From positions 1 through 64,000 of IMG/VR virus record IMGVR_UViG_3300030376_007431: a DNA stretch of 64,000 nt; one strand, written 5' to 3'. Made by a program: the position numbers and the translations under genes. The notes beneath the pieces were generated by a model, which was not told where the DNA came from, made no database searches, and saw only the letters and a program-made list of their open reading frames with translations. Shown here one piece after another: positions 15,130 to 31,807 of the stretch. This DNA comes from a virus. Taxonomy: Duplodnaviria; Caudoviricetes. Positions within the stretch are counted from its first letter, which is position 1; the number at the start of each line of letters is the position of its first letter.

Positions 15130-16168
15130 CATAACAGCGCCGATCAACAATCTAGGGTATGGAGTAGCGTCTTTTAACATTGTCAAACAGCTGTTAAAGA
15201 TGAACCATGACATACAGTTAAATGTTTTAGGTAGGATAGAAGACCCCCATCAGATGTCTATTGTCTATGACTGCATAGAAAAGTCGGTGAGCAACAATTC
15301 AACATCAGTCAAAATATGGCATCAGAATGATGTACATCACCACATTGGTAAAGGTATGCATGTAGCCTTTCCTATATTTGAACTCAATGAATTTACCAAA
15401 ACTGAGAAGTGGAGCCTTGGGCATAACGACAGGATTATGGTCTGCTCTGATTGGGCTAAGGGTGTGGTAGAGAGTCAAGTTAGAGTGCCCACGAAAGTTG
15501 TTCCGCTTGGCGTTGACACTGAAATGTTTTTTCCTGCCAGTACATCAAGATCCCAGACAGTATTTTTTAACTGTGGCAAGTGGGAGGTGAGGAAAGGGCA
15601 TGATGTTTTAGTTGAATGTTTTAACAAGGCTTTTGATTACAACGACGATGTTGAACTTTGGATGATGTGTGAGAATCCCTTTTATTCGGAGGCACAGCAG
15701 GCTGAATGGATAGGCATGTATAAAAATTCTCCACTGGGCAACAAAATAAGAATCATACCTAGACAGACGGCACATGAAGATGTGTGCAATATTATGAGAC
15801 AAACTGATTGTGGTGTGTTCCCAGCTAGGGCAGAAGGTTGGAACCTAGAGCTTTTAGAAATGATGGCATGTGGAAAACATGTTATAGCTACTGACTACTC
15901 TGGACACACAGAGTTCTGTACTCATCAAAACAGCAGACTCATAGACGTAACTAGCCTTGAGAGAGCCTCTGATGGTGTATGGTTTAATGGTCAGGGTATG
16001 TGGGCGTCACTGGGAGAGACTTCAAAAGATCAGATTATAAACCACATGAGGGACATTCATAACAAGAAACAGTCGGGAGATTTAGGTCAGAATCAAGATG
16101 GGATTATAACAGCTACAGAGTTTTCTTGGGAAAACTCAGCGAAAAAGTTCTTAGAAGCTATAGAATAA
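15122..16168 (+). CDS. GT4-family (GT-B) glycosyltransferase
   Basis: GKWEVRKGHDVL, VFPARAEGWNLELLEMMACG (EX7E). Confidence 0.88.
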   Translation: MINITAPINNLGYGVASFNIVKQLLKMNHDIQLNVLGRIEDPHQMSIVYDCIEKSVSNNSTSVKIWHQNDVHHHIGKGMHVAFPIFELNEFTKTEKWSLGHNDRIMVCSDWAKGVVESQVRVPTKVVPLGVDTEMFFPASTSRSQTVFFNCGKWEVRKGHDVLVECFNKAFDYNDDVELWMMCENPFYSEAQQAEWIGMYKNSPLGNKIRIIPRQTAHEDVCNIMRQTDCGVFPARAEGWNLELLEMMACGKHVIATDYSGHTEFCTHQNSRLIDVTSLERASDGVWFNGQGMWASLGETSKDQIINHMRDIHNKKQSGDLGQNQDGIITATEFSWENSAKKFLEAIE

Positions 16169-16170
16169 AG

Positions 16171-16199
16171 TTGCAAACATGGTCACGCCATGCTAAAAT
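16171..16199 (+). promoter_or_regulatory. Sigma-70-like promoter with extended -10
   Basis: TTGCAA (16171-16176), 17-nt spacer, TGc-TAAAAT (16194-16199). Confidence 0.7.
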
Positions 16200-16240
16200 A
16201 TTTCTAGTAACCAGTTATCTTTTTTAATAAGGAGAAGAAA

Positions 16241-16414
16241 ATGGTAGATAAGCTAAAAAGCTTAGTGAGGTCAAAACGTTTTTGGACTGCTGTCGGTACT
16301 GTTGTTACCGTATGTCTTCAGGACGTTGTTGGCATCCCGCCAGAAACGGCAACGAGTATTGTTGCGGTTGCTGTCGCTTGGATTGTAGGTGATTCTCTTC
16401 GCGCAACGGAGTAG
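16241..16414 (+). CDS. 57-aa two-TM membrane protein, holin-like (not in ORF track)
   Basis: AAGGAG RBS; MVDKLKSLVRSKRFWTAVGTVVTVCLQDVVGIPPETATSIVAVAVAWIVGDSLRATE*. Confidence 0.75.
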   Translation: MVDKLKSLVRSKRFWTAVGTVVTVCLQDVVGIPPETATSIVAVAVAWIVGDSLRATE

Positions 16415-16438
16415 ACATAAATAGAGAATCATGATTCA

Positions 16439-16470
16439 GGGTTCGGTGCATGATGCGCCGGACTCTTTTT
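16439..16470 (+). terminator. Intrinsic terminator
   Basis: GGGTTCGGTGCA-TGA-TGCGCCGGACTC, a 12-bp stem with G-U pairs, followed by TTTTT. Confidence 0.75.
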
Positions 16471-16485
16471 ATAAGGAGAAAAAAA

Positions 16486-16743
16486 TTGGAATTAGATTTT
16501 ATTACAGCCGCTGAATCTCACTATAAAGCAAAAATGGATGAGGCAGCTTTAACAATGAGGGTATATATGAGAAACGCTGCCGGTATTGGAGAACACCCTC
16601 AAATTTTTGATGAGTTCAGAAATGCTCTCGAAGACTTCCAAAGCGCTAGAGAAAATTATAAGCTGGTTCAGGAATTAAAAGCTCAGTTCATAAGCTCTCA
16701 GCAAGAAGAGAGTAGTCAGGAAGGCGCAAAAGTTGAAGACTAA
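16486..16743 (+). CDS. Conserved small phage protein (GIGEH motif)
   Basis: AAGGAG RBS before TTG 16486; VYMRNAAGIGEHPQI resembles small T4-like marine phage proteins (recollection). Confidence 0.6.
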   Translation: MELDFITAAESHYKAKMDEAALTMRVYMRNAAGIGEHPQIFDEFRNALEDFQSARENYKLVQELKAQFISSQQEESSQEGAKVED

Positions 16744-17107
16744 GATAACACTACTTCCGGTAGCTTATGATATTTCAAAAGCTCCCCTAGACCCGAAAAG
16801 AAATGTTCTTCTTATAGACGAGCAACCTCTTTTTAGGTACATGGCTAACGAACAACCGCAGGAAGTACTGAGAAAAATATGCGAAGAGTATATAGGCTAT
16901 GCTTATAGCTGGCTTAAATTTGAGCTCGGTGATTTTCTCAGGCACTCAGATCATTTTGAGGTAGTCTATTATTGTAGCTTTCCCAATATGCTAGGCTGGA
17001 ACAAAAAGGGAGCCATTTTACATATGTCGATTGATGAAGAGCTACAACAGATAGGAGAACATTATTTTGACACACTATCAAGATTCACCTCAAGAAGATA
17101 CGGTTAA
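16733..17107 (+). CDS. Hypothetical protein
   Basis: ORF track; overlaps the upstream gene. Confidence 0.55.
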   Translation: MKTKITLLPVAYDISKAPLDPKRNVLLIDEQPLFRYMANEQPQEVLRKICEEYIGYAYSWLKFELGDFLRHSDHFEVVYYCSFPNMLGWNKKGAILHMSIDEELQQIGEHYFDTLSRFTSRRYG

Positions 17108-17390
17108 GTCCTGTTACTTTGAATGTTTTGTTGACAAAGAGACAGGCGCTGTAATGTTTGAATGTGGTTGGGGAGACTCAGATCTCGACCTTGATAACTT
17201 TGCTTTTATGCTAAAGATGCTCAACAAAGGCAAATATGAATCCGTAGTCTTAGAAGAGATAGGAAACCAATGTGGTGATAACGAGACAAAATTACAACAG
17301 TATTTTACTCTTCTAAATAAATATGAGGCTTTGTTTGCAGAAGAAGATTCTTCATCTGTAGCTATAAAACCTAGCAGAGTAAACCCCTAA
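17067..17390 (+). CDS. Hypothetical protein (start uncertain)
   Basis: ORF track. Confidence 0.5.
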   Translation: MTHYQDSPQEDTVKSCYFECFVDKETGAVMFECGWGDSDLDLDNFAFMLKMLNKGKYESVVLEEIGNQCGDNETKLQQYFTLLNKYEALFAEEDSSSVAIKPSRVNP

Positions 17391-17437
17391 TAGTGTGTAT
17401 AACACATTATACTATTGTCCTTTTTGGAGGCTAGGGA

Positions 17438-18082
17438 ATGTTAAATAACAAGAAGATTGCTTGGCAAAGCTGGAATGCTATGGTAACTGAGTTCTACGAG
17501 AATGACGCAGAGCTAGCTTTACTTGAAGAATTGCTTTCAGCTAACTCACACGAAGAACCTACCGAAAACACACTCAAATTTCTAGACCCAATGCCTAGAG
17601 TTTTGTACACCCCTTATGGGCCATTTCCTACAGAGTCCTTTTTGAAACCGTCTGACAGATGGGATTGTTGGATTTGTTATACTAACTTCGACGTTACTAT
17701 ATCTATGATAGAGTCCATAGAGGGGATAGATGGCGTTGAAGCGATAAAAGCTATGGGAAGATATACTATTTTTATAGGAATTGCAAAACTTTTTAATTCT
17801 ACTGAAGTTAAACTAAACATAGAGAACTTAGTAGCCGATACAAAACATATAAACAACATGGAAACCGCAGCAGAGGATCTAAAAGATGCTATAGAAGCAA
17901 TAAAAGATCAGGTTTCAAATAAACCATATTGGTCTATTTTTGTTTCCTCTGTTGGCGATATTGATTATATCATGTCAGATTCCTTAGATGAGGACTATCT
18001 TCATGATTTAAATAAATTTGAAAACTTACGTAAAAAAGTTGGTGGTATTATTATTAGGAGTTCTAATGAACAGAAACATTGA
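17438..18082 (+). CDS. Hypothetical protein
   Basis: GGAGG upstream; 214-aa ORF. Confidence 0.65.
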   Translation: MLNNKKIAWQSWNAMVTEFYENDAELALLEELLSANSHEEPTENTLKFLDPMPRVLYTPYGPFPTESFLKPSDRWDCWICYTNFDVTISMIESIEGIDGVEAIKAMGRYTIFIGIAKLFNSTEVKLNIENLVADTKHINNMETAAEDLKDAIEAIKDQVSNKPYWSIFVSSVGDIDYIMSDSLDEDYLHDLNKFENLRKKVGGIIIRSSNEQKH

Positions 18083-18533
18083 TGAAGCCGTTGTTAATAT
18101 TGATTATAAGAAAATTATGGATAAGGTTTGCTCTAAGTACAACCGTTTTGTAGACGCTGATGATTTGTCGTCTATGAGAATGGTTACTTTGTGGCAGTGT
18201 CTTAATAAGTTTGATCCGAGTAGGAATGTTAAATTCACATCTTACTTGTATCAGCAACTGACATTTGCCATCAAAAACTTTCTGAAAAAGAAAAAAAGAG
18301 AGTTCACTAATATCCCATTTGATGTAGCAAAAGAATCCATGGAAAACATGGAGGTTGTAATGCTAGATTTCCCAGATGAATATAAAAAGCTTTTGAGGCA
18401 GAAATATATTTATCGAATGACCATGAGTGAGATTGGTCAGATAAACGGATACAGCAGAGAAACAGCACGTCGTAGGTTCAACAAGGCTAAAGTCTACTAT
18501 GAGGAAATGAATGAGAGTAGAGCTACTCTGTAA
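18066..18533 (+). CDS. Phage sigma-70-family RNA polymerase sigma factor (copy 1)
   Basis: Region-2-like DDLSS...LWQCLNKFDPSRNVKFTSYLY; region-4 HTH MTMSEIGQINGYSRETARRRFNKA. Confidence 0.8.
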   Translation: MNRNIDEAVVNIDYKKIMDKVCSKYNRFVDADDLSSMRMVTLWQCLNKFDPSRNVKFTSYLYQQLTFAIKNFLKKKKREFTNIPFDVAKESMENMEVVMLDFPDEYKKLLRQKYIYRMTMSEIGQINGYSRETARRRFNKAKVYYEEMNESRATL

Positions 18534-19152
18534 TGAGTCTAAATACCCAGAGATATTGCAGTGTATATTTGAGGCATCTGAAAAGAGGTTAGATCAAATA
18601 TGCACTCCTTCTGGGATTATACCTAGAATAGATGAAGTTTTTATACGGGAACATTGCAACTTCTCAGCACTGGTAGATTTTCCGTATGGAATATCCGAGA
18701 CTAGGATTAGAGTCCATGAGATATTACTATGCTCCAAAAGAGGCGTGAAGGATATTGATCTTGTTATAAACAGAAATGATATAGAGTCGTCTAACCTAAA
18801 CTCAATAAGAAAAGATTTTAGAACCTGCTTCTCTGCCTGTAAGGAGAATGGCCTTAACATAAGACCTATCATAGAATACAGATTCACTGATGATGAATTC
18901 CTTTATGAGCTTTGTAGCTCTTTAAAATACAACGGCGCGGTAGAGATCGTAATTGGTACTGGATCTATGGTTGATGATATACTAGATAACATAATTTCTT
19001 CAAAGCTAATAGAAGATAAGTTAAACCTTGATGTTGTTAGTTGCTCACCAATACTTTCTCAAGAGCATTATGACATATTTTATGATTCAAATATTCATGG
19101 AATTAGATTAAAGTCTTATAAAATACTAGATAATTTGTGTACAATATGGTAG
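18511..19152 (+). CDS. DeoC (deoxyribose-phosphate aldolase)-like TIM barrel lacking the catalytic lysines
   Basis: LVDFPYG, GVKDIDLVIN and RPIIE align to DeoC; KTSTG is replaced by VIGTG. Confidence 0.65.
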   Translation: MRVELLCNESKYPEILQCIFEASEKRLDQICTPSGIIPRIDEVFIREHCNFSALVDFPYGISETRIRVHEILLCSKRGVKDIDLVINRNDIESSNLNSIRKDFRTCFSACKENGLNIRPIIEYRFTDDEFLYELCSSLKYNGAVEIVIGTGSMVDDILDNIISSKLIEDKLNLDVVSCSPILSQEHYDIFYDSNIHGIRLKSYKILDNLCTIW

Positions 19153-19219
19153 GAACAGGACACTCTTATGGATAATTGAGGATTTATATATCTTTATTTT
19201 TGCATAGGAGTCATATATC

Positions 19220-20011
19220 ATGGCAGTTCCCGGCGCTTTAACAAATTATTCCGTATCTACTACGAATAACGGAAATCCCTCCACCAACAAAGAAGGTGGA
19301 ACAATCTTAGGTAATGATAACACTGGTGACGTTATCACTAAAGCTTTTGAATTAATCACCGCAACAAAAGATAACTACAATGCTATTGGCACAGGGCCTA
19401 TCACAGGCAATGGTACTAACGCTATGGTTGGTGCTCAAAAAGTTCTTGCCGCTGGTACGTTCGCTTATCACGTAGCAGGCGAGTATGTTATCGCTAGAGC
19501 TTCAGCTACTCTATCTGGTGTAGCAAAAACTCAGCTCTTGACTATGGGCGCTGGCGATCAGCGACCATCTATTGCTCAGTTCTATCGTCAGATTGGAGCT
19601 AAGATACTCACAGCCTTCCGTTCTAATAGATTTAGCTGGACTAGTACTAAGTCTTACGGTACTGCTGGAGCTGCCCTCACAAGCAGACTCAACTGGGTCG
19701 CAGCTACAACCGCAGGTGGTAATGCTGCTGCTGCTCCAGACACTCTCTCTGGTCAGCAGTTGCGCGCTATTGGTGGAGCAACTAGAAACGGTACTGCCGC
19801 AGATGCAGACTACACTGACGCAGCCGCAAATGGTTACGTTGGAGCTGCAGATGTCGATTCTGGCAGTGGCCTTGCTCTTGCTGATACGGGACTTAGAAAA
19901 GTTCCGGGTCGCTTGGTAATCAAGTCTAACTTCGTTAACTTGAACCCTTGGACTTCAGTTAAGACTAGCGCTAGACCTGACTTCAACAACTACAAGCCAA
20001 TCACTGGTTAG
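19220..20011 (+). CDS. Ala/Gly/Thr-rich protein, probable virion component
   Basis: Composition and codon bias typical of highly expressed structural genes; ATAGGAG RBS; followed by a terminator. Confidence 0.5.
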   Translation: MAVPGALTNYSVSTTNNGNPSTNKEGGTILGNDNTGDVITKAFELITATKDNYNAIGTGPITGNGTNAMVGAQKVLAAGTFAYHVAGEYVIARASATLSGVAKTQLLTMGAGDQRPSIAQFYRQIGAKILTAFRSNRFSWTSTKSYGTAGAALTSRLNWVAATTAGGNAAAAPDTLSGQQLRAIGGATRNGTAADADYTDAAANGYVGAADVDSGSGLALADTGLRKVPGRLVIKSNFVNLNPWTSVKTSARPDFNNYKPITG

Positions 20012-20018
20012 TAATTTT

Positions 20019-20055
20019 AGAGGGGGGAGACATTCTCCCCCTTCTATTTTTTTTT
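20019..20055 (+). terminator. Intrinsic terminator
   Basis: AGAGGGGGGAGA-CAT-TCTCCCCCTTCT followed by A and a T-run. Confidence 0.85.
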
Positions 20056-20079
20056 AAATATAACACGGGGAGAACCCAG

Positions 20080-20361
20080 ATGGATTGGTCATCAATCAAC
20101 GATATAGCACAAATTGTGGGGATGGTAGCACTTCCAGTAATAGGATGGGTTTTTCACACAGTGGTGAAGCATGGGAGTAAGCTTGTGATGTTAGAAGAAA
20201 AAGTTAACGATTCTATTCAAAGAAGATTGGATTCTTTAGAAAATAAGGTTGACGGATTAGAGACTAAGATTGATAATAAGATAGACAAACTCGAAGATTC
20301 GCTTCATGAAACACAGCTTACTATGGCAGAAAAAATCATAGAGGCTATAAACAAAAATTAG
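20080..20361 (+). CDS. Single-TM coiled-coil membrane protein (XhlA/holin-like architecture)
   Basis: Hydrophobic IVGMVALPVIGWVF followed by heptad repeats. Confidence 0.55.
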   Translation: MDWSSINDIAQIVGMVALPVIGWVFHTVVKHGSKLVMLEEKVNDSIQRRLDSLENKVDGLETKIDNKIDKLEDSLHETQLTMAEKIIEAINKN

Positions 20362-20378
20362 GATATAAGGAGAGATAG

Positions 20379-20633
20379 ATGTTACTAAAAGATGTTATTG
20401 AAAAAGCAAGTTCCGCTAGTAGTGCTGAACAAAGTGGTTTATCTGGAGAAGATACTTTTAAAGCTTTGAAATATTTGAGCGAAAAAATTACGGTTGCACA
20501 TTACATTAATGTTAATGTCGATTTAGATGGGGCTCCTGAGCCTCCTGCACCCGCCCCAGAACCTGAGCCACCAGCAGAAGACGGAGCCTCGGAGGTTAAT
20601 GACGATGGAGGATCTGAATTTTTTAACGGATAA
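20379..20633 (+). CDS. Acidic Pro-rich hypothetical protein
   Basis: AAGGAG RBS; PEPPAPAPEPEPP tail. Confidence 0.6.
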   Translation: MLLKDVIEKASSASSAEQSGLSGEDTFKALKYLSEKITVAHYINVNVDLDGAPEPPAPAPEPEPPAEDGASEVNDDGGSEFFNG

Positions 20634-20657
20634 TCATTTTAATTATAAATTTTTATC

Positions 20658-20685
20658 TTGTAAATCAACATAACGACACTATAAT
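20658..20685 (+). promoter_or_regulatory. Sigma-70-like promoter upstream of the nrdA leader
   Basis: TTGTAA (20658-20663), 16-nt spacer, TATAAT (20680-20685). Confidence 0.55.
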
Positions 20686-20819
20686 AAAACCGGGGAGTAA
20701 ACAAGTCCAGCTTATATAAAGTGGGCTAAACGGCACTTTCCCCGACTAGCCGAAAGGCACAGTAGCTTATCAAGAATTACTTGTAGCGCTACTGTTTATT
20801 ATAAGTGTCGTTTTTTTTT
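20672..20819 (+). other. Structured intergenic element (candidate cis-regulatory RNA or sRNA) upstream of nrdA
   Basis: 17/18-nt inverted repeat (20672-20688 and 20795-20812) enclosing three hairpins, one with GCC-GAAA-GGC, then T9. Confidence 0.6.
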
Positions 20820-20846
20820 GTAAACAACTTTTGACGCAGTGAGATT

Positions 20847-23294
20847 ATGAGCCAGAATATAAAAATCAAAAAGAGAAATGGTCGGTTAGAAGAAGTAAAT
20901 TTAGACAAAGTAAATAAGTGCGTAGAAAGAGCTTGTGAGAACTTAGAGGACGTATCTGTTAGTGAAGTGGTATTGGATGCAAGTCTACAGCTCTACAATA
21001 AAATTCCGACATCTGAAATAAATCAGGCTCTTATACTGTCGGCAAGATCAAAGATAGAAAAAGAACCCAACTATGCCTATGTAGCAGCTCGAATGTTACT
21101 AAACAATCTTTACAAAGAAGTGTTTGGAGAAGATGTAGGCAGTGAAAGTTTTGAAGAGCAGTACAAAAAGGCTTTTGTTAAAAATATTAAAAGGTTAGTG
21201 AAAGAAGAGCGACTGAGTGATAGACTTCTAAGCTATGATCTAGAATACTTAGCCGATAAAATGGTTCCCTCTAGAGACAAATTATTCAAATATTTGGGGA
21301 TTCAAACACTGTATGATAGATATTTCATACACCTAAATGAACAGAGAATGGAAACTCCGCAGGCTTTTTATATGCGAGTAGCTATGGGTTTGTGTCTAGC
21401 CGAAGAAAATATGGAAGACAAAGCTCTTGAAATATATAATATGATGTCCGAATTCAGGTACTCGCCATCAACACCGACCCTATTTAATAGCGGCACTCGC
21501 AGGTCGCAACTTTCTTCCTGCTATTTAAGCACTGTCGGTGATTCGCTTGATGGAATCTTTGGTACTCTTCATGGCCAATCTAGGCTTTCTAAATATGCGG
21601 GAGGCCTTGGAGTGGACTGGTCTGGAGTAAGAGCTACAGGCGGTTATATAAAGGGCACAAACGGCAAATCTACAGGGCTTGTGCCTTGGCTTAAGATATT
21701 CAATGACCTGCTTGTTGCAGTTAATCAAGGAGGGAAGAGAAAAGGTGCTGGGTGTGCATATATTGAACCTTGGCATCTAGACATTGAGGATTTCTTAGAT
21801 CTCAGGAAAAACACTGGCGATGATCGTCGCAGATGTCACGATATGAACACAGCGCTATGGATTCCAGACGATTTTATGTTAGCTGTTTCAAAGAACCAAG
21901 ATTGGTATTTATTTGATCCTTCTGAATGCCCAGAGCTACATGATACATACGGTAAAGAATTTACTAAAATGTATAAGAAATACAAAAAGGCTGCTGACAA
22001 TGGAGAATTAAAAAATTATACAATCATCAATTCTAAAGATTTGTGGAAAAAGATTCTCACAGCCCTATATGAAACTGGGCATCCTTGGATTACATTCAAA
22101 GACCCATCTAATATAAGATATTCTAATAAGCATGAAGGGGTAGTGCATTCATCTAACCTATGTACAGAGATCTTATTACATACAAAACCCACCGAGTATG
22201 ATGAAGGTGAGATTATCGAGGTTGGAGAGACTGCGGTGTGTAATTTAGCGAGTGTCAACTTGTCTTCACACCTTAAAGTCCGCACCATAGATTGGAAAAA
22301 GCTACAAAAAACTGTAGAGGTTGCCGTGAGAGGCTTGGATAATGTAATAAATTTAAATTTTTATCCAACTAAAGAGGCAAAGAAGGCAAACCTAAAACAT
22401 AGACCTGTTGGTCTTGGAATTATGGGCACTCATGATGTGCTACATAGACTAGGAATACCTTACAATTCTCAGGATGCAGTGGTATTGTGCGGGAAAATAC
22501 AAGAGTTTATCTCCCTGCATGCAATCAAAACTTCAGCATTATTAGCTAAAGAAAAGGGAGAATACCCCTCTTTTGAGGGTTCTCTTTGGAGTCAGGACAA
22601 ATTTCCAATAGATACTTATTGTGATTTGATGAATCAGAGACATACTCATAAGCCAGAAAATGTGTATAAGAGAGTGGACTTTGAGAGCTTTGAAGAAGAG
22701 TGGGATGAGGTTAGGGAATTAGTAAGAAGACATGGTATGCGTAATAGTAATGTCATGGCGATTGCTCCTACCGCAACTATTTCATATATTCAAGGCTGTT
22801 CGCAGTCTATTGAACCAGATTACTCAATTCTTTATGTTTATTCAACACTCAGTGGTGAGTTCACAATGGTCAACGAGCATTTTGTCTCAATGGCAAAGAA
22901 GAAAGGTATTTGGTGTCAAGAGTTAGTGGACGCTCTTAAAACTGCTGACGGAGACGTTATGGCAGTTGATTTAGATGAGGATATTCAAAGAGAGTTTATG
23001 ACGGCTTTTGATATTGAACCAGAAATTTTAATTAAGGCTGCGGCTGAAAGGCAGAAGTGGATTGACATGGGACAGTCACTGAACCTTTATAACAAACACG
23101 ACAGTCTTAAATTTTTAAATGACCTATATTTTTGTGCTTGGGAAAACGGTTTAAAAACTACATATTACCTAAGAGGCAAAGCCGCAACTCGGCTAGAAAA
23201 ATCAACTGTTAGTTTTAAATCAACCGAAGAACCGACAACAGAAGAAATTAAGGCCTGTTCTATTTTAGATCCCGGATGTGAGAGTTGTCAATGA
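20847..23294 (+). CDS. nrdA: Class I ribonucleotide reductase alpha subunit with N-terminal ATP cone
   Basis: IKKRNG ATP cone, PSTPTLFN, LSSCY, SNLCTEI, VCNLASVN, APTATIS, LKTTYYLR, C-terminal CESCQ. Confidence 0.97.
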   Translation: MSQNIKIKKRNGRLEEVNLDKVNKCVERACENLEDVSVSEVVLDASLQLYNKIPTSEINQALILSARSKIEKEPNYAYVAARMLLNNLYKEVFGEDVGSESFEEQYKKAFVKNIKRLVKEERLSDRLLSYDLEYLADKMVPSRDKLFKYLGIQTLYDRYFIHLNEQRMETPQAFYMRVAMGLCLAEENMEDKALEIYNMMSEFRYSPSTPTLFNSGTRRSQLSSCYLSTVGDSLDGIFGTLHGQSRLSKYAGGLGVDWSGVRATGGYIKGTNGKSTGLVPWLKIFNDLLVAVNQGGKRKGAGCAYIEPWHLDIEDFLDLRKNTGDDRRRCHDMNTALWIPDDFMLAVSKNQDWYLFDPSECPELHDTYGKEFTKMYKKYKKAADNGELKNYTIINSKDLWKKILTALYETGHPWITFKDPSNIRYSNKHEGVVHSSNLCTEILLHTKPTEYDEGEIIEVGETAVCNLASVNLSSHLKVRTIDWKKLQKTVEVAVRGLDNVINLNFYPTKEAKKANLKHRPVGLGIMGTHDVLHRLGIPYNSQDAVVLCGKIQEFISLHAIKTSALLAKEKGEYPSFEGSLWSQDKFPIDTYCDLMNQRHTHKPENVYKRVDFESFEEEWDEVRELVRRHGMRNSNVMAIAPTATISYIQGCSQSIEPDYSILYVYSTLSGEFTMVNEHFVSMAKKKGIWCQELVDALKTADGDVMAVDLDEDIQREFMTAFDIEPEILIKAAAERQKWIDMGQSLNLYNKHDSLKFLNDLYFCAWENGLKTTYYLRGKAATRLEKSTVSFKSTEEPTTEEIKACSILDPGCESCQ

Positions 23295-23428
23295 GATTTG
23301 TTGAGTTTAAACAGTCTGGAACATCGCCAGTAAAATATAGACTAGAAATTAATTCAGAAGAAGCCGAAAAAGTTAAGGACTTATTGCAGGAAATTATTGA
23401 GAGATTAAGTAAAAATGAAAAAAACTAA
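23291..23428 (+). CDS. 45-aa hypothetical protein between nrdA and nrdB (not in ORF track)
   Basis: ATGA overlap with the nrdA stop; MRFVEFKQSGTSPVKYRLEINSEEAEKVKDLLQEIIERLSKNEKN*. Confidence 0.55.
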   Translation: MRFVEFKQSGTSPVKYRLEINSEEAEKVKDLLQEIIERLSKNEKN

Positions 23429-24422
23429 GCAGATTATATCAGATAAAGTAGCGAGTGTAAATCAAATTCTTCCTCATGTAAATAAATGGGCTTGGGATTT
23501 ATTCATAGATGGTGCGGCTAATAACTGGATGCCAACCGAAATTTCTATGGCTAAGGATATAGAGCAGTGGAAATCCAACTCATTATCCGAAGATGAGAGA
23601 TTGGTAGTAAAGAGATGTCTAGGATTCTTTGCTGGCTCAGAGTCTTTGGTCGCCAATAACTTACTGCTTAGCGTGTTTAAGTTTGTAACAGATCCAGAAT
23701 GTCGCCAGTATATTCTACGTCAAGCATATGAAGAAAGCCTGCACAACTTAACGGTGGTATATATTTGCGACTCACTGAGTCTAGATATCGACGAAGTATA
23801 TCAAGCATATAATTCAGTCCCTAGCATTAAAGCTAAAGACGAGTTCTTGATGAATATTACTAGTGATATAAATCGTCCTGACTTCAACATAAACACATTG
23901 GAAGGCAAGAGAGAGTTTCTTCGTAATATCATAACATATTATATTATATGCGAGGGGATATTCTTCTTCTCTGGTTTTGCTATGCTATTATCCTTTAATA
24001 GGCAGAACAAGCTTCCGGGAATTGGTGAACAAATCCAATACACTCTTCGTGATGAGAGTATACATATTGATTTTGGGACTACACTTATCAATAGATTAAG
24101 AGAAGATAACCCTAAAATTTGGACAAAAGCTATGGAAAAAGAAACCATTGAGCATATTGATACAGCTATGGAGCTTGAATTAGCTTACGCTAGAGATGTG
24201 TTGCCGAATGGTATTCTAGGATTGAACGCAGATATGTTTATTGACTATGTTCAATTTATTGCGAACAGAAGGCTTACTAACTTAGGTCTGCCATCACCAT
24301 ATACGAATGCACAGAATCCATTCCCTTGGATGAGTGAAATAATAGATTTAGAGAAGTGTAAAAACTTTTTTGAGACGAGAGTTACAGAGTATTCAGTGGG
24401 TAATTTAGTGGACGATTTTTAA
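23415..24422 (+). CDS. nrdB: Ribonucleotide reductase beta subunit, class Ic (R2c)-type signature
   Basis: NNWMPTEI, FFAGSESLV (Glu ligand), EESLHNLTV (Val at the radical-Tyr site), EGIFFFSGF, RDESIH, NFFETRVTEY. Confidence 0.95.
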   Translation: MKKTKQIISDKVASVNQILPHVNKWAWDLFIDGAANNWMPTEISMAKDIEQWKSNSLSEDERLVVKRCLGFFAGSESLVANNLLLSVFKFVTDPECRQYILRQAYEESLHNLTVVYICDSLSLDIDEVYQAYNSVPSIKAKDEFLMNITSDINRPDFNINTLEGKREFLRNIITYYIICEGIFFFSGFAMLLSFNRQNKLPGIGEQIQYTLRDESIHIDFGTTLINRLREDNPKIWTKAMEKETIEHIDTAMELELAYARDVLPNGILGLNADMFIDYVQFIANRRLTNLGLPSPYTNAQNPFPWMSEIIDLEKCKNFFETRVTEYSVGNLVDDF

Positions 24423-24436
24423 TAAGGTTTTAAAAA

Positions 24437-25552
24437 ATGGCTAACAGAATATTTTATGCGTGTCAGGGTGTCTTTGTAGATGGCTCTGAGTTGAAAAACG
24501 TGCAGAGCGTTGGTGTAAATTATTCTGCTGAAGCTGAAGGAGTGTCTGATCAAGGCAGACAACAACAGTTTAGAAGTCTTTACGCAAAGCCTGAAGTTGA
24601 GATAACTATAGAAAGAAATCTAAATCATGGTTTCACTCCATTCTATGCCGCTACAACTCCTTCTACATATGTAGGCGGCTTTTTACTTGCCGATGGTAAT
24701 TTGGGGATGTGCGGCTGGGACGGTAGCTCGAATTTAAAAGAATACAAAGTCGAGCTTGTGTATATGGACGATCAGAGCACAAGCACTAGGGTTGCTAATA
24801 TCCAATACAAATATTGTTTAATTACCAATATATCTTATTCTTTTCAGGTTGGCGGCCCAGCTACAGAGTCTATAACACTCAAAACAAATAATCTAATCAG
24901 AGAGGGAACCGCGACAGTTCCGGTTACTGGAGGTACTGACGGTGGCACAAATATAAAAAGACAAGCTTATATTAAACCGGAAGGCGCAGGTACTAATTCT
25001 ACAGTTATTCCCACAGAGCTATCAAGTATAATCACTAAGGATACAGGTATTGGTAGCCATAACGGTCTTATTCAATCCATTGAGGCAAGCATGGATGTCT
25101 CTTATGAAGAGCTTTCAGATCAAGGAAACTGGAGAGGTGCTAATCAAACAACAAACCCCTCAGAGCAGAACAAATGGAAATATGTCACCGATGTGGATAT
25201 AGAGACCTCAATAACTGCCAATTTGACAAAATCAATTCAACAAGATATTTTAATGAAAGACACAAACTTTATGGCTGCATTTCCAAAGCCAGATAGAGAG
25301 ATTAAGCTGGCCTTTACCAATGGCGCCAGTAATTTCTTTGTATTAGATCTTGGTAAAAGAAACTATTTAACAAGCATAAGCTGGTCTGGAGGCGATACAG
25401 GAGGTGGCAACGTAACTGGTGCTTTTACATATAAGAATGATATGAAAGAATTTGTTCCATATGTCCACAGCGCTGTGTATAATATAGCGGCGCCAACAAT
25501 AGCCGTCACTAACCCAGATGGCTCAGAAACAACATTTAATGTATATTATTAA
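24437..25552 (+). CDS. Putative virion protein, tail-tube-like
   Basis: MANRIFYACQ...VQSVGVN...PEVEITIER; beta-rich, Gly/Thr-rich; resembles tail tube proteins of large environmental phages (recollection). Confidence 0.45.
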   Translation: MANRIFYACQGVFVDGSELKNVQSVGVNYSAEAEGVSDQGRQQQFRSLYAKPEVEITIERNLNHGFTPFYAATTPSTYVGGFLLADGNLGMCGWDGSSNLKEYKVELVYMDDQSTSTRVANIQYKYCLITNISYSFQVGGPATESITLKTNNLIREGTATVPVTGGTDGGTNIKRQAYIKPEGAGTNSTVIPTELSSIITKDTGIGSHNGLIQSIEASMDVSYEELSDQGNWRGANQTTNPSEQNKWKYVTDVDIETSITANLTKSIQQDILMKDTNFMAAFPKPDREIKLAFTNGASNFFVLDLGKRNYLTSISWSGGDTGGGNVTGAFTYKNDMKEFVPYVHSAVYNIAAPTIAVTNPDGSETTFNVYY

Positions 25553-25566
25553 TAAAGGAGAAAACC

Positions 25567-26820
25567 GTGTTAGACTTTATTTTTGATCGCAGGAACTTTT
25601 TAAGAGTAGGAAGTATTGGTGCTGGACTCAGTGCAGTAGGGTTATCTGACTATGCTTTGGCTCAGGAAACTCTGTCACACGAAGATAAAGCTGTTGTTTG
25701 GGTATGGCTTGGAGGAGGGCCAACTCAATTTGAGACATTTCATGCTCCTAATGACACGGTTCCAACTGAATGGCAGCCAATCAATGGCGCGATTCATGAT
25801 GCCAAAACTAATATTACGCTAGGAGCTGACTGGACTGAGTTAGCTAAACATACTAGCAAGATGAACGTAATCAATTCATTTAGCCATAGGGATTCTTCTC
25901 ATCGCCAAGGTACTCACTTCATGATGACTGGACACTATAATCCAGAGAGAACAACTACATCCATAACGAAGTACCCATCTTTTGGTTCTATAATCTCTGC
26001 CGTTTACGGGGCTAATCATCCTCAAAATGGAGTACCCACATATGTTAAACAAGGTAAAATCGAAGGTGATGAAGGTGCTTGGTTGGGCGGAGCATATAAA
26101 CCTTTCGATCCATCCAATAAAGACAACCTTACCCCAAGAGTTGAACTTAATAGATTCTCAACAAGAAAAGAATTGCTCAGAGGACTCGACGCCGCCAGAG
26201 TAGCTGGACAAAGCGCAGACTCTGTGGACTTTTATAAGGGTCAGGCATATGATGTAATTCTAGGCTCAGCCAAAGATGCTTTTTCTACAGATAAAGAAAC
26301 AGAAGCAACAAAAAAACTATACGGATCAGAGAAAGCCAACGATATCGGTGAACAATTAATGCTAGCTCGACGACTAGTAGAACATGGAACAAAATTTATA
26401 ACTTTACATTACGGTGGCTGGGATATGCACTCTAATATTTCTAACGCTTTGAAAGGCAAGGTTCCACCTATTGACAAGGCTCTAGCTGGATTTATGCAAG
26501 ATGTGTCTGATAAGGGTTTAAGTGATAAAGTATTATTAGTGGTCACTGGTGAATTTGGCAGAACTAAGATCAACGCCAATGCTGGTCGTGACCATTGGCC
26601 ATCAATCACACCAATGTTTATGTTTGGTGGGGATTACCAATCAGGCAGAACTATTGGAGAATCAGACAGATCATATAGTCCAATAGAGAACCCAGTTGGG
26701 CCATTGGATTTACAAGCAACACTATTTAATCATTTCGGAATAGATAAAGGCATTCAGCGTGTAGATAACGGCGGAAGGCCTAGATATTTACTGGAAGGCG
26801 AAGCAAAGGTAATATTATAA
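25567..26820 (+). CDS. DUF1501-family protein with Tat signal (copy 1)
   Basis: RRNFL...ALA signal; WLGGGPTQFETF, SHRQGTHFMMTG, LMLARRLVE, GGWDMH, GEFGRT, GRDHWP. Confidence 0.9.
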   Translation: MLDFIFDRRNFLRVGSIGAGLSAVGLSDYALAQETLSHEDKAVVWVWLGGGPTQFETFHAPNDTVPTEWQPINGAIHDAKTNITLGADWTELAKHTSKMNVINSFSHRDSSHRQGTHFMMTGHYNPERTTTSITKYPSFGSIISAVYGANHPQNGVPTYVKQGKIEGDEGAWLGGAYKPFDPSNKDNLTPRVELNRFSTRKELLRGLDAARVAGQSADSVDFYKGQAYDVILGSAKDAFSTDKETEATKKLYGSEKANDIGEQLMLARRLVEHGTKFITLHYGGWDMHSNISNALKGKVPPIDKALAGFMQDVSDKGLSDKVLLVVTGEFGRTKINANAGRDHWPSITPMFMFGGDYQSGRTIGESDRSYSPIENPVGPLDLQATLFNHFGIDKGIQRVDNGGRPRYLLEGEAKVIL

Positions 26821-27731
26821 TGAAAAAAGAAAACTATGCAAGTGCATTTAATGAATATTTAAACGAAACAGGTTACACCGAAGAGCTTACAGAGGAGAAT
26901 TTCTATGTGCCTGCGGAAGCGGAATATGTAGACTTTGGTGAAGATACTGAAGACTGGGATATTGCAGAGGCAAAACCCGGACTTTGGGAAAATATCCGCA
27001 AGAAGAAGGAAAGAGAAGGTAAAAATTATAGGCCTGCTCGCACTGAAAAAGAAGGTAGGCCGAGTCAAGAAGAATTAAAGAAAGCTAAGTCTGATAAGCC
27101 CTCCAAGGGCGATCCTCGAAGAACTCCTGCCCCCAAGAAAGACCAGAAGAAAGGATCTAAAAAGAACAAGCCAGACAGCGCGAAGAACCCAAGCGGCAAG
27201 ATTACTTTTAGCAAAGAGGTAACAAAGCAGTTATCAAATAAGGTTAAAGAACATAATGCTAAAGGCAAAGGTTCAAAGGCTAGTCTTGGGATGTTAAAAG
27301 CTGTATATAGAAGAGGTGCTGGCGCTTATTCTACAAGCCATGCACCAAAGATGAGTCGTCATGGTTGGGCTATTGCTAGAGTAAATGCTTTCCTGACATT
27401 GCTTAGAACTGGCAAGCCATCTAATTCTGCATATAAGCAAGATAATGATCTATTGCCAAAAGGTCATCCTAGAAAATCTAAAGCGGCAGAATATCAAGGT
27501 AGAAAAGTCACTTTGAACAAACCATTTAGAACTCCAGATGGGCCAAAGAAATTTGCGGTATATACTAAGAATGGATCTGGTAAGGTTGTCATTGTACGAT
27601 TTGGCGATCCAAATATGGAGATCAAAAGAGATAATCCAAAAAGAAGAAAAAGTTTTAGAGCAAGACATAAATGTGATACAGCTCCGGGCCCAAAGTGGAA
27701 AGCTCGGTACTGGTCTTGCAGAATGTGGTAA
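26820..27731 (+). CDS. Highly basic multi-module phage protein (possible DNA-condensing or head-associated)
   Basis: Concatenated short modules: GLWENIRKK; KAVYRRGAGAY...WAIARVNAFL; KVTLNKP...KKFAVY...FGDPNM...RRKSFRARHKC...ARYWSC. Confidence 0.6.
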   Translation: MKKENYASAFNEYLNETGYTEELTEENFYVPAEAEYVDFGEDTEDWDIAEAKPGLWENIRKKKEREGKNYRPARTEKEGRPSQEELKKAKSDKPSKGDPRRTPAPKKDQKKGSKKNKPDSAKNPSGKITFSKEVTKQLSNKVKEHNAKGKGSKASLGMLKAVYRRGAGAYSTSHAPKMSRHGWAIARVNAFLTLLRTGKPSNSAYKQDNDLLPKGHPRKSKAAEYQGRKVTLNKPFRTPDGPKKFAVYTKNGSGKVVIVRFGDPNMEIKRDNPKRRKSFRARHKCDTAPGPKWKARYWSCRMW

Positions 27732-27741
27732 AGGAAATTTT

Positions 27742-29040
27742 ATGAATTGTAAAGGTAATCGCAGATCTTTTCTGCATGTTGGTTTTTTGGGTGGGCTAGG
27801 CTTAACTTTATCGGATTACTTCCGAATGGAGAAGCTTCAGGCTGACCAGAAATTTTATGAAAGTATTGAAGGCCCAGCAAAGTCTGTTATTTATATTTAT
27901 TTGCCGGGAGGTTCAGCACATCAAGAGACATTTGATCCTAAACCTTTTGCTCCACTTGAGTACAGAGGGCCAATGTCTAGTATTGAAACAGTAGTTCCCG
28001 GAACTAGGCTTAACGAAATGATGGCTAAAACAGCCAAAGTCACAGACAAGATGACTATCATTCGCAGTATGACTCATGGAGAAGCAGCTCATGAACGAGG
28101 CACACATAATATGTTTACTGGTTATAGACCTAGCCCAGCCCTTCAATACCCATCAATGGGTTCAGTGGTGGCGCACGAGTTTGGCCCTCGCCAAAACCTT
28201 CCTCCATATGTCTGTATCCCAAACCAACCTAATGAATATGCAGGTACTGGATATTTAAGCAGCTCGTTTTCAGGCTTTAGTTTAGGCGCTGATCCAGCAA
28301 GTGATGGATTTCAGGTTCGAGATTTGAAACTACCTAACGGAGTCAATGATGGTAGATTTGGCAGTAGAAGAAAAATGCTTTCCGCAGTCAATGATTACTT
28401 TGCCACTAAAGAAAAGTCAGACTCTTTAGATGCTGTAGATAGTTTCTATGACAGAGCGTATAGTCTAATTAGCAGTGAAAAAGCTAGAGATGCTTTTGAT
28501 ATCAACAAAGAAAGCGATGCAATGCGAGATAAGTATGGTAGAAATACCGCTGGAGCCCGCATGCTTTTAGCTCGACGTTTAGTAGAAGCTGGAACACGTT
28601 TTGTCACGCTCACTTATGGTGGATGGGACATGCACAATAATATAGAAAATGGTATTCGTGGACAAGTACCCGCACTAGATCAAGGGCTTGCGGCTCTTAT
28701 TGAAGACCTTAGTGATAGAGGCATGCTAGACTCAACATTAGTTTGCTTAGCTTCTGAATTCGGTCGCACGCCTAAGATTAATGCAACCGCTGGGCGTGAC
28801 CACTGGCCAAAAGTGTTTAGTGTAGTTATGGCTGGAGGAGGAATACAAAGTGGAATGATTTACGGAAGCTCCAATGCTACAGCAAGTGAGCCAGAAGATA
28901 ATCCAATGACAGTAGAAGACTGGGCAGCTACTATCTATAATAGAATTGGTATTGTTGCTGACAAAGAGCTTATGGCTCCCGGCGATAGACCTATAGAAAT
29001 TGTAGACGGTGGCAAAGTTAGACAAGACTTAATTGTATAA
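27742..29040 (+). CDS. DUF1501-family protein with Tat signal (copy 2)
   Basis: True start probably ATG 27742 (MNCKGNRRSFL); AKSVIYIYLPGGSAHQETFDPKP, HERGTHNMFTG, LLARRLVEAG, GGWDMH, SEFGRTP, GRDHWP. Confidence 0.93.
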   Translation: MNCKGNRRSFLHVGFLGGLGLTLSDYFRMEKLQADQKFYESIEGPAKSVIYIYLPGGSAHQETFDPKPFAPLEYRGPMSSIETVVPGTRLNEMMAKTAKVTDKMTIIRSMTHGEAAHERGTHNMFTGYRPSPALQYPSMGSVVAHEFGPRQNLPPYVCIPNQPNEYAGTGYLSSSFSGFSLGADPASDGFQVRDLKLPNGVNDGRFGSRRKMLSAVNDYFATKEKSDSLDAVDSFYDRAYSLISSEKARDAFDINKESDAMRDKYGRNTAGARMLLARRLVEAGTRFVTLTYGGWDMHNNIENGIRGQVPALDQGLAALIEDLSDRGMLDSTLVCLASEFGRTPKINATAGRDHWPKVFSVVMAGGGIQSGMIYGSSNATASEPEDNPMTVEDWAATIYNRIGIVADKELMAPGDRPIEIVDGGKVRQDLIV

Positions 29041-29050
29041 GGGAAACAAA

Positions 29051-29263
29051 ATGCCTTTACCTAAAAGAAATAAAGATGAGGATGCTAAAAACTTTGTTAA
29101 TCGCTGCATGTCCAGTGATGTCATGAAGGAAGAATATCCTAGTCAACAACAGCGAGTTGCTGTATGTATCAGTCAATCACGAGCCGCTTCTACAGTAGAG
29201 GGTTTAGCCGCTGCTAGTGAAGAGCTTATTTACGAAAATATTAAAAAGGAGACACAACAATGA
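29051..29263 (+). CDS. Small conserved phage module (P.P...FVNRCM...EYP..QQRVAVC)
   Basis: Motif recalled from phage head-associated proteins; ATG 29051. Confidence 0.55.
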   Translation: MPLPKRNKDEDAKNFVNRCMSSDVMKEEYPSQQQRVAVCISQSRAASTVEGLAAASEELIYENIKKETQQ

Positions 29264-29454
29264 AATTTAAAGTACCGCTGATAGCAATTATGATAGTTGC
29301 GGCAATATGTTTCATCAACAAAGAGGAGATAAAAAATATGTTTAGTGGCGATCAACCAGTTATTTGTGAAATATGTGAACCAGAATGTCCATGTCCAGAA
29401 GCAGGTTGCATTTGCGACGTTAATATATGCAAATGTGAAAAGTGCGTTAGTTAA
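29260..29454 (+). CDS. Membrane-anchored or secreted Cys-rich (metallothionein-like) small protein
   Basis: N-terminal hydrophobic helix; 9 Cys in 27 residues at the C-terminus. Confidence 0.6.
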   Translation: MKFKVPLIAIMIVAAICFINKEEIKNMFSGDQPVICEICEPECPCPEAGCICDVNICKCEKCVS

Positions 29455-29539
29455 TTTCGATCTCGACCAAACGGCGAGAGCTAGCATCGAAATCAGTTTT
29501 GGGCGTTCGTTAAAAAGGAATTTATCGGGCGCTCAAACT
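29454..29539 (+). other. Intergenic double hairpin (terminator or candidate cis-regulatory RNA)
   Basis: ATTTCGAT...ATCGAAAT enclosing CTCG-ACC-AAAC-GG-CGAG; second stem AGTTTTGGGCGTTCG / CGGGCGCTCAAACT with G-U pairs. Confidence 0.45.
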
Positions 29540-29559
29540 TAACCAAAGGAGTTAATATA

Positions 29560-29997
29560 ATGAAATATTTAGTAACACTATTATGTTTATTGTTTGTGCC
29601 ATTATCTGCAAACGCAGATCGACCAGAGCGTAAGGTAATCAAACCTCCCCAAGTTGTCAGAAGCCAACCCAGAGAGTTTACAAGACCTCCTGCGGCAAAA
29701 CCCGTACAGAACAAACCTCTGCCAAAAGGATTCGGCGTACCGATTCAACGCCCACAAGGGTTTGGAAAACAGCAGTGGCAGAAACCACAGCCTCAACCTC
29801 AACAACCAAAAGTTCAGACTAAACATAGCTTTGGTTTTTATAATTACTATAGACCCGTGAACCCGCATTTTAGATATTATAGAGTTCCCTCTTATTATCC
29901 CCCTGTGATTATTCAGCCTCCTGTTGTTATTCAACCTCAGCCAATGCCGATTTATCCGGGCCCATTTCATGGTTTCTTTTTTCAATTTAGATTTTAA
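29560..29997 (+). CDS. Secreted Pro/Gln/Tyr-rich low-complexity protein
   Basis: AAAGGAG RBS; signal peptide ending SANA; QPQPQQP and YYRP..YYPP tracts; ends GFFFQFRF. Confidence 0.7.
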   Translation: MKYLVTLLCLLFVPLSANADRPERKVIKPPQVVRSQPREFTRPPAAKPVQNKPLPKGFGVPIQRPQGFGKQQWQKPQPQPQQPKVQTKHSFGFYNYYRPVNPHFRYYRVPSYYPPVIIQPPVVIQPQPMPIYPGPFHGFFFQFRF

Positions 29998-30006
29998 GGT
30001 AATACT

Positions 30007-30579
30007 ATGACAACACAATACGCAAGACCTGATAGTGACATATCTGTTGACTCTTTTGGAGCGTATGGCTGGTTCGCAAGCACTGGCTCCGATCTGTATG
30101 CAATGATAGATGAAGAAGTTGCAGACGATACCGACTATGCGAGATGCCGAGGAAGCAACGCTGAAAGTGGCTATAGATATTACAAGCTAGGTCTGAGCGA
30201 CATTGACGAACCTAGTGACAAGTCTACTTTAAGTATTCGGGTAAGAGTTAGTAATGTAGATGACGCTGGGGATTTACGACTGTATCAAGGCTCTAGTCTG
30301 ATTAAAAGGTTCAACGGTTCTGGCAATGGGTTTGGAACTGGCTCTAAAAGAAATCTTGACTTTGCAATTCCTGAAGCCGATGCAGAAAATATAACAGACT
30401 ATACGGATTTGAATCTTTGGATTGGTATAGATAATGATTCGTATGGTACTGCTTACATCTATCAGGTGTACTTGGAAGCCGGTAGTGCCAGTGGTGGCTC
30501 AACTAGAAAGCAAAATTTGTCTATTATATCTCCCTCTATGGGTATTCAGGGTTTAGGAAATGGTTTTACTTTAGCATAA
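30007..30579 (+). CDS. Beta-rich putative virion/fibre-associated protein
   Basis: YARPDSD...W...LY..IDE...DD.DY pattern and acidic Gly/Ser-rich composition. Confidence 0.4.
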   Translation: MTTQYARPDSDISVDSFGAYGWFASTGSDLYAMIDEEVADDTDYARCRGSNAESGYRYYKLGLSDIDEPSDKSTLSIRVRVSNVDDAGDLRLYQGSSLIKRFNGSGNGFGTGSKRNLDFAIPEADAENITDYTDLNLWIGIDNDSYGTAYIYQVYLEAGSASGGSTRKQNLSIISPSMGIQGLGNGFTLA

Positions 30580-30592
30580 GGACACACGTAAT

Positions 30593-31807
30593 ATGAAGAG
30601 ACGCAACTTTTTAGCTTCTGTAGCGAGCGTAATGTCGCTAGCAGAAACTGTCAAAGCGAATCAAGAAGAGTTGAAAAAAAATGGTAAATCCGCTATCCTG
30701 TTATGGATGGGCGGCGGCCCTTCAACGATGGACATCTGGGACTTAAAATCCGGCGCTCCAACAGGAGGCCCTTTCAGGCCTATAGCTACTAGCGGAGATG
30801 TTCAGATTAGTGAGCATATGCCTTTAATGGCTAAACAAATGCATAACGCCGCCATTATTAGAAGTATGAGTACTCGTGAAGCTGACCATATGCGTGGTCG
30901 TTATTATATGCACACCGGCTACGTTCCTAATCCATCTATTGACCACCCAAGCTATGGGTCTGTCCTATCCCATCAACTCCGACGAAAAGATTTGTCGATC
31001 CCCCAATTCATCTCAGTGGGAGGAGGAAGTATGGGCGCAGGTTTTCTGGGAGCTAAATACAATCCGTTCATGGTAAATAGTGATGGTAGAATTAGAAATC
31101 TAGATATGAAAGTAGATGAAAGATTTTATCAAAGAGCTTACGCTTTAGATGCAATTGAAAATAACTTTATAAACCAGAGAAGAGGATCATTAGCAAAAGA
31201 ACATCAGGCGATCCTTAAAGAGACATTTAATGTTCTAACGAGCGCCCAAATGGATGCGCTTAAAGTAGCTGGTGAACCTGACAATATAAAAGAAAGATAC
31301 GGAGACAATAACTTTGGTAAGGGGTGCTTGATGGCACGGCGTTTAGTCGAAGCAGGAGTACCATTTATTGAAGTTAATCTAGGTGGCTGGGATAATCACC
31401 AGAACATTTTCCCTACATTAAGAGATACGAAACTGCCCATGTTAGATCAAGGCATGAGCGCGCTGTATGAAGATTTAGAGCAGCGTGGGTTATTACAAGA
31501 CACAGCGATTATTTGGATGGGTGAGTTCAGTAGGACTCCTCGTATCAACGGTAATGCTGGTCGTGACCACTGGGCACGAAGCTGGAGTGTTGTCGTTGGC
31601 GGAGCCGGAATGAATGGCGGTATCGCTATTGGCGAAACAAACTCAGATGGTACTCGTGTGGAAACCGAACCATATACATCTCAGGATGTCATGGCTTCCG
31701 TTTGCAAAGCGCTTGGTATTTCTTTGGGTACTACGTTTACTAGCAACAGTGGTAGACCTATGAAAATCGCTAACTCTGGTAAGGTCATAACCGAACTGTT
31801 TGGTTAA
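30593..31807 (+). CDS. DUF1501-family protein with Tat signal (copy 3)
   Basis: MKRRNFL; ILLWMGGGPSTMDIWDLK, DHMRGRYYMHTG, CLMARRLVEAG, GGWDNH, GEFSRTP, GRDHWA. Confidence 0.92.
   Translation: MKRRNFLASVASVMSLAETVKANQEELKKNGKSAILLWMGGGPSTMDIWDLKSGAPTGGPFRPIATSGDVQISEHMPLMAKQMHNAAIIRSMSTREADHMRGRYYMHTGYVPNPSIDHPSYGSVLSHQLRRKDLSIPQFISVGGGSMGAGFLGAKYNPFMVNSDGRIRNLDMKVDERFYQRAYALDAIENNFINQRRGSLAKEHQAILKETFNVLTSAQMDALKVAGEPDNIKERYGDNNFGKGCLMARRLVEAGVPFIEVNLGGWDNHQNIFPTLRDTKLPMLDQGMSALYEDLEQRGLLQDTAIIWMGEFSRTPRINGNAGRDHWARSWSVVVGGAGMNGGIAIGETNSDGTRVETEPYTSQDVMASVCKALGISLGTTFTSNSGRPMKIANSGKVITELFG

Follow-up and report, generated by a model that had tools for sequence, protein, structure and literature searches.

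We identified a phage ribonucleotide reductase (RNR) with no tyrosine at the radical site of its beta subunit. Together, nrdA and nrdB probably encode a functional class I enzyme of the NrdAz/NrdBz (Chlamydia/Pseudomonas) family. The tyrosine-free beta subunit would be 'subclass Ic-like', with the oxidant most likely held on the metal cluster. Taken alone, NrdB is very probably an active RNR subunit that works free of a tyrosyl radical. The DNA analysed, referred to here as the window, covers the initial 64 kb of an IMG/VR virus record that is 85.6 kb long and was judged 55% complete. All genes in the window share the same coding strand and GC content is 36–42%. Phage hallmark genes encode rIIA, a DnaB-like helicase, UvsX and a split DNA polymerase. 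The source is a large uncultured marine phage with a genome of roughly 150 kb. For the polymerase, open reading frames (ORFs) at 45072–46643 and 47510–49090 (plus strand) match positions 245–610 and 623–1055, respectively, of phrog_405 (DNA polymerase family). They thus match the N- and C-terminal halves of one polymerase, which points to a split gene. The window also encodes a tmRNA (10285–10627, plus strand; ARAGORN) with the tag peptide VEENFALAA.

The nrdA gene (20847–23294, plus strand) encodes a large (alpha) subunit of 815 amino acids with one N-terminal ATP-cone (PF02867, 6e-182; PF00317; PF03477). The class Ic-like small (beta) subunit of 335 amino acids is encoded by nrdB (23415–24422, plus strand). 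This ORF runs from ATG to TAA and matches PF00268 across residues 17–302 (2.5e-79). In a profile search of the 85.6-kb record, itself about 55% complete, nrdB was the only PF00268 gene. The arrangement is well conserved; nrdA is directly upstream of nrdB at 85 of 88 viral loci. Between the two genes is a 45-codon ORF (23291–23428, plus strand) that matches phrog_34148 (function unknown; E 1e-5). Its ATG overlaps the nrdA stop codon (ATGA), its own stop overlaps the first codons of nrdB, and the product contains neither Cys nor His. An intact homologue of 44–50 amino acids occupies the same position in 46 of 84 viral relatives. In 36 of the 84, including the closest relative (locus L086), the ORF is absent and nrdA and nrdB abut. 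The spacer ORF is thus facultative in the lineage. An Rfam search around nrdA and nrdB, leader included, gave no credible match. In the nrdA leader (20660–20820, plus strand) a TATAAT-containing arm pairs with a distal arm. Inner hairpins lie between the arms and a T9 run follows.

Comparison of L086 with positions 12604–31807 of the window revealed a mosaic. The block containing nrdA, nrdB and DUF1501 genes is 90–96% identical, while upstream genes (12604–20361) are 42–71% identical. Two DUF1501 genes, at 25567–26820 and 27538–29040 (plus strand), encode Tat-like signal peptides and are 90–93% identical in L086. Immediately 3′ of nrdB is an ORF of 371 amino acids (24437–25552, plus strand) with no Pfam family and a weak PHROG match to major tail protein. 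It is 48% identical in L086, compared with 90–96% for the flanking nrdB and DUF1501 genes, and is a fast-evolving gene inside a conserved block. Across relatives, L086 is syntenic with the window, two loci (L159 and L160) share replication genes only, and three (L161, L165 and L169) share the RNR only. Hence, several phage lineages carry this RNR.

Class Ia beta subunits have Asp as first metal ligand and Tyr at the radical site. The R2c protein of Chlamydia trachomatis has Glu89 and Phe127, and uses a Mn(IV)/Fe(III) cofactor with no tyrosyl radical. An earlier note on this DNA had read the phage protein as having Glu in place of Asp and Val in place of the radical Tyr. The coordinates of the ORF, and codons for Glu76 and Val114 starting at 23640 and 23754, proved exact. 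The Glu76 codon (23640–23642, plus strand; motif FFAGSESLV) is GAA or GAG at 85 of 85 viral loci. The radical-site residue is V114 (23754–23756), within the codons for N111-L112-T113-V114 (23745–23756, plus strand; motif EESLHNLTV). We aligned NrdB with E. coli K-12 NrdB using MAFFT and numbered the latter as the mature protein. The metal ligands correspond as follows: E76 to D84, E107 to E115, H110 to H118, E180 to E204, E214 to E238 and H217 to H241. Elsewhere, V114 equates to Y122, W38 to W48, F184 to F208, F188 to F212, T210 to I234 and Y326 to Y356. A HMMER comparison with PDB entry 1SYY gave a constant offset of 13 for Chlamydia R2c, pairing E76 with E89, V114 with F127, Y116 with Y129, Y209 with Y222 and Y326 with Y338. 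Both alignments bear out the substitutions described in the note. In place of the class Ia signature, an Asp first ligand and a radical Tyr, NrdB has Glu76 and Val114.

The ligand set and the radical relay are intact. The first-sphere ligands E76, E107, H110, E180, E214 and H217 form a complete Glu-Glu-His-Glu-Glu-His set. Second-sphere residues are E106, preceding ligand 2, and D213, preceding ligand 5. W38 and Y326 show no variation in any alignment, the relay residue Y209 is conserved, and the C-terminal alpha-binding tail is retained. The Y326 codon (24390–24392, plus strand), for the C-terminal radical-transfer tyrosine, is followed by a DDF C-terminus. Both the R2 fold and the family profile match class I RNR beta subunits. 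The best-scoring solved relatives are C. trachomatis R2c (1SYY/4D8F, 5e-128) and a second R2c (6Y2N, 2.5e-114), with E. coli R2 at about 1e-15. An AlphaFold model of NrdB (pLDDT 88, pTM 0.86) superposes on the Chlamydia Mn/Fe NrdB with a TM score of 0.90, rmsd of 1.0–1.9 Å and identity of 56–57%.

The partner subunit also appears competent. Its best solved relative is the class Ia NrdA of P. aeruginosa (5IM3, 3.3e-250). We found the motifs SSCYL, SSNLCTEI, AVCNL and TTYYLR, and the C-terminal Cys pair. The thiyl-radical loop, redox cysteines and YY dyad are all retained. NrdA is full-length and, judged by these motifs, catalytically intact.

Because Val occupies the position of Tyr122, a tyrosyl radical is impossible at the canonical site. 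In the mechanism that we propose, there being no oxidisable side chain here, the oxidising equivalent would be stored on the metal cluster, as in the Mn(IV)/Fe(III) centre of Chlamydia R2c. The cluster would be high-valent, and hetero- or homobimetallic. The hole would pass via W38 and the C-terminal Y326 to the YY dyad of alpha, and from there to the catalytic cysteine. The enzyme would supply dNTPs for replication of the roughly 150-kb phage genome.

A different aromatic residue could, in principle, be an organic radical site. Tyr116 lies two residues beyond V114, and the earlier note had singled it out as the residue that might overturn its reading. Another candidate is Y175, which is enriched in the clade. 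However, Tyr116 corresponds to Chlamydia Y129, where there is no radical, and among 17 representatives of the clade four have Thr or Val in its place. Hence, Tyr116 is no substitute radical site. Similarly, Phe or Val replaces Y175 in four of the 17. We regard a radical on either tyrosine as exceedingly unlikely.

Some beta-like proteins generate no radical for an RNR. Yeast Y4 is a catalytically silent beta-like subunit, and R2lox proteins are oxidases. In favour of such a reading, the radical tyrosine is missing, and a second beta gene could lie outside a record that is about 55% complete. Even so, the six ligands, W38, Y326 and the alpha-binding tail are all intact, the gene shares an operon with nrdA at the 85 of 88 loci noted above, and the R2c enzymes that come closest among solved structures are active. 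An R2lox identity fits no better. R2lox proteins have neither the C-terminal Tyr nor an alpha partner (PMC3824934); NrdB has Y326 and the tail, nrdA is directly upstream, and the best R2lox match scores only 1.3e-11. A silent subunit or oxidase is therefore very improbable, and we favour a radical-generating beta subunit with a metal-centred oxidant.

Chlamydia R2c (1SYY, 4D8F, 4D8G, 4M1H and 4M1I) and 6Y2N share with the phage protein all six ligands, with Glu first, and the second-sphere Glu and Asp. The Chlamydia residues W51, Y222 and Y338 are equivalent to phage W38, Y209 and Y326. Given the 56–57% identity and the identical ligand spheres, Mn/Fe is the likelier cofactor, a view that we hold with modest confidence. 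The six first-sphere ligands are also the same in the di-manganese class Id proteins (PMC6370689, Table 3). Hence, the metals cannot be read from the first-sphere ligands by themselves. The class Id proteins of F. johnsoniae and L. blandensis (NrdBi) further resemble the phage protein in having a metal-centred oxidant and no tyrosyl radical. They differ in that identity is only 19–22%, the site Tyr is kept, and the second sphere has Cys or Ser where the phage has Glu (E106) (PMC6370689, Tables 3 and 4). As a sequence assignment, the note's proposal of a class Ic-type, NrdBz/R2c-like beta, with a Glu first ligand and an inert residue at the radical site, is sound. Class Ic-type chemistry is plausible on these grounds.

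We then assessed how widely the Glu/Val combination occurs. Among close homologues (85–97% identity) in Tara, JGI and ENA marine assemblies, on contigs of up to 145 kb, 121 of 121 retain ESLHNLTVVY. Codon use at position 114 is varied; between them, 85 viral loci use each of the four Val codons and two Ile codons. Hence, V114 is neither a one-off nor a sequencing error. Representatives were taken from clusters at 50% identity; in the best 150, the first ligand and the residue at the Tyr site were paired as Asp/Tyr in 46, Glu/Phe in 26, Glu/Val in 12, Glu/Tyr in 6, Glu/Leu in 5 and Glu/Ile in 4. Related loci were then collected from GTDB and IMG/VR in searches seeded with a 5-sequence alignment. 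The 80 best IMG/VR loci are all Glu/Val or Glu/Ile. The 80 best loci in GTDB species genomes comprise 50 Glu/Phe, 28 Asp/Tyr and 2 of the Val/Ile type, named L002 and L003.

Both exceptions can be accounted for. L002 is on contig CAZYHH010000001.1 of an 'uncultured Pseudomonadales' metagenome-assembled genome (MAG). Its nrdAB genes match the query exactly as do those of IMG/VR contigs L168 and L169, and in the alpha alignment L002 and L169 have identical rows. Hence, L002 is a viral contig misbinned into a bacterial MAG. L003 is on a 7-kb contig of a 'Deinococcota' MAG and is likely to be of viral origin too. The 78 best genuinely cellular relatives among the 80 GTDB loci have Glu and Phe or Asp and Tyr only. 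A deeper Val subclade (P0127-like) is likewise found on viral contigs in IMG/VR. Among the deep representatives, which also include P0123, P0131, P0145 and P0179, genomic context was checked for the P0127-like proteins. Every Val/Ile member with a checked context is viral. From these surveys, the Val/Ile lineage appears to be virus-only and common in the ocean. Among the named phages of INPHARED we detected no NrdB of the Val/Ile type; Pseudomonas phage Lauda has Asp and Tyr, and Aquificae Joseph's Coat Spring virus has Glu and Phe.

One database entry labelled as a phage, L162 (CAKLQH020000007.1, 'Acinetobacter phage MD-2021a'), looks like a bacterial chromosome. LysR, PhzF-family and similar bacterial genes surround its nrdAB, and its NrdB is Asp/Tyr. 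A 44-amino-acid ORF is present between nrdA and nrdB here too. In addition, many metagenomic NrdBz-type betas are about 615–715 amino acids long, twice the normal length (P0122, P0124, P0128–P0130, P0132, P0134, P0141, P0144, P0149 and others). For these, the match to the query is split in two, with the break near residues 107–115 (the radical site) or 217–220 (the last ligand). Most likely, they carry an intein at the most conserved sites. The insertion renders the residue aligned to position 114 unreliable in these double-length proteins. Five representatives apparently combining Asp with Val, Ile or Leu (P0129, P0149, P0156, P0242 and P0249) have large insertions, probably inteins, beside residues 107–115. 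Their residue '114' may be an alignment artefact and they were excluded.

In maximum-likelihood trees, betas with Glu/Val, Glu/Ile and Glu/Ala form one clade (SH-aLRT 97–99). The clade is nested among Glu/Phe sequences of the NrdBz-type family, where the surrounding backbone is weakly supported. These beta trees were built without the Chlamydia R2c sequence, which was compared with the query by identity (56–57%) and structure only. Alphas paired with Val/Ile betas form a matching clade (support 100), apart from alphas partnered with Glu/Phe or Asp/Tyr betas. We considered that the phage gene might be a copy of a host gene. This was rejected because Planctomycete NrdB proteins have Glu and Phe or Asp and Tyr, are only 53–54% identical to the phage protein, and belong to another clade.

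Residues close to the metal and radical site also set the clade apart. Position 111 is Asn in all 93 of the Glu/Val and Glu/Ile proteins, and mostly Thr in the Glu/Phe and Asp/Tyr types. Position 179 (codon 23949–23951, plus strand) is Cys in 90 of the 93, and Phe, Met or Leu in the other two types. Position 210 (codon 24042–24044, plus strand) is Thr in 91 of the 93; at this site, 65 of 70 Glu/Phe and 63 of 65 Asp/Tyr proteins have Ile. N111 adjoins ligand H110 and C179 directly precedes ligand E180. T210 equates to E. coli I234 which, with F208 and F212, forms a hydrophobic pocket around the radical tyrosine, as described in PMC3824934. Across the 85 viral loci, both Asn codons (111), both Cys codons (179) and all four Thr codons (210) are in use. 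Synonymous codons are thus saturated at V114, N111, C179 and T210. Hence, the residues are held by selection and not by recent common descent. Purifying selection is strong on V114 and on the remodelled pocket of N111, C179 and T210.

Thr at position 210 is also found in a separate Glu/Leu clade. Its presence in both this and the Val/Ile/Ala clade indicates that the aromatic ring was lost and Thr acquired together on at least two occasions. An independent-pairs test for coupled change, a small residue at 114 with Thr at 210, returned only 4–6 pairs (p = 1); events are too few and the coupling is descriptive. The clade is further marked by its DDF C-terminus, other types having a Trp-containing tail. 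This is in keeping with a tail that matches the cognate alpha. Relative to Chlamydia R2c, Phe127 is replaced by Val, Ile223 by Thr, Thr124 by Asn and the residue before E193 by Cys. The phage protein also differs in its DDF end in place of the Trp-containing tail, in a partner alpha with one ATP-cone, and in being viral rather than cellular. We infer that the smaller, more polar pocket tunes the metal cluster.

The remodelled pocket raises the question of whether the Val/Ile clade is a class I subclass of its own, biochemically distinct from Ic proper. Such an enzyme would have a metal-centred oxidant, but the pocket would allow a different metal pair (Mn/Mn or Fe/Fe), a different redox tuning or a different way of activation. 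N111, C179 and T210 are clade-specific, near-invariant, and located at or beside the metal and radical site; since the pocket is unlike that of Chlamydia at four positions, the chemistry may differ. No cellular sequence sampled falls within either the alpha or the beta clade. First-sphere ligands are common to di-manganese class Id (PMC6370689), and the authors of PMC12918982 treat the group as separate from Ic, without deciding on its cofactor. Conversely, identity to Chlamydia R2c is 56–57%, and the residues of both ligand spheres are the same. Identity to class Id structures is only 19–22%, and the second-sphere Cys/Ser of class Id is missing (PMC6370689, Table 4). The Glu/Leu clade also has Thr210, so Thr may do no more than make up for a smaller residue at 114. 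We consider a distinct subclass unlikely, though worth keeping in view, and retain the Ic-like reading.

The earlier note had presented its finding as new, on the basis that phage RNRs are usually described as class Ia, Ib, II or III. This view is outdated. R2c proteins in which Leu, Ile or Val takes the place of Phe were documented by Hogbom 2010 (cited in PMC3824934), and Harrison 2019 (PMC6370689) counted proteins as NrdBzc when the Tyr site was occupied by Phe, Leu or Val. The scheme in question is that of RNRdb (Lundin 2009). By its criteria as used in PMC6370689, the phage protein, an NrdBz-type sequence with Val and the pattern E-E-H-E-E-H / E-D (Tables 3 and 4), falls within NrdBzc. 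It is nevertheless unlike the cellular NrdBzc and NrdBza members among the 80 best GTDB loci, which have Glu and Phe (50) or Asp and Tyr (28) where the phage has Glu and Val. Most directly, a bioRxiv preprint of February 2026 (PMC12918982) describes a marine viral 'subclass Ic-like' clade, with alpha closest to NrdAz and Ile or Val in beta. It assigns 269 alpha sequences from GOV 2.0 to this clade, equal to 1.44% of viral RNRs. Its abundance is anti-correlated with predicted iron, from few observations and with a caution from the authors, and is maximal at the deep chlorophyll layer. The authors regard Ile and Val as unlike the Phe and Leu of reference proteins, and state that no Ic-like member has been characterised.

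The features described here fit that clade. In each case the contigs are marine and viral, alpha is near NrdAz in a clade of its own, and beta has Val or Ile and no radical Tyr; identity with the GOV 2.0 clade is inferred from its description. The phage NrdB is thus a further member of a known Val/Ile type, and the clade is already on record. To this we add the restriction of the lineage to viruses, a clade of alphas that matches it, a pocket signature held by selection and the facultative small ORF. Neither the N111/C179/T210 signature nor the 45-amino-acid ORF appears in the passages of PMC12918982 consulted.

RNR is a main marker gene in marine virus ecology, and the trace metals that a phage requires for replication depend on the RNR subclass. 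The earlier note had suggested that the phage enzyme could resist NO or radical scavengers and lower iron demand; this is speculation. The clade offers a natural Phe-to-Val/Ile plus Ile-to-Thr variant for pocket tuning of a high-valent metal oxidant. If the less likely reading were true, and this is a new subclass, it could be an adaptation of ocean phages to the supply of trace metals inside their hosts. If the cofactor is Mn/Fe, class Ic chemistry, known biochemically from few bacteria only, would extend to abundant phages of the ocean.
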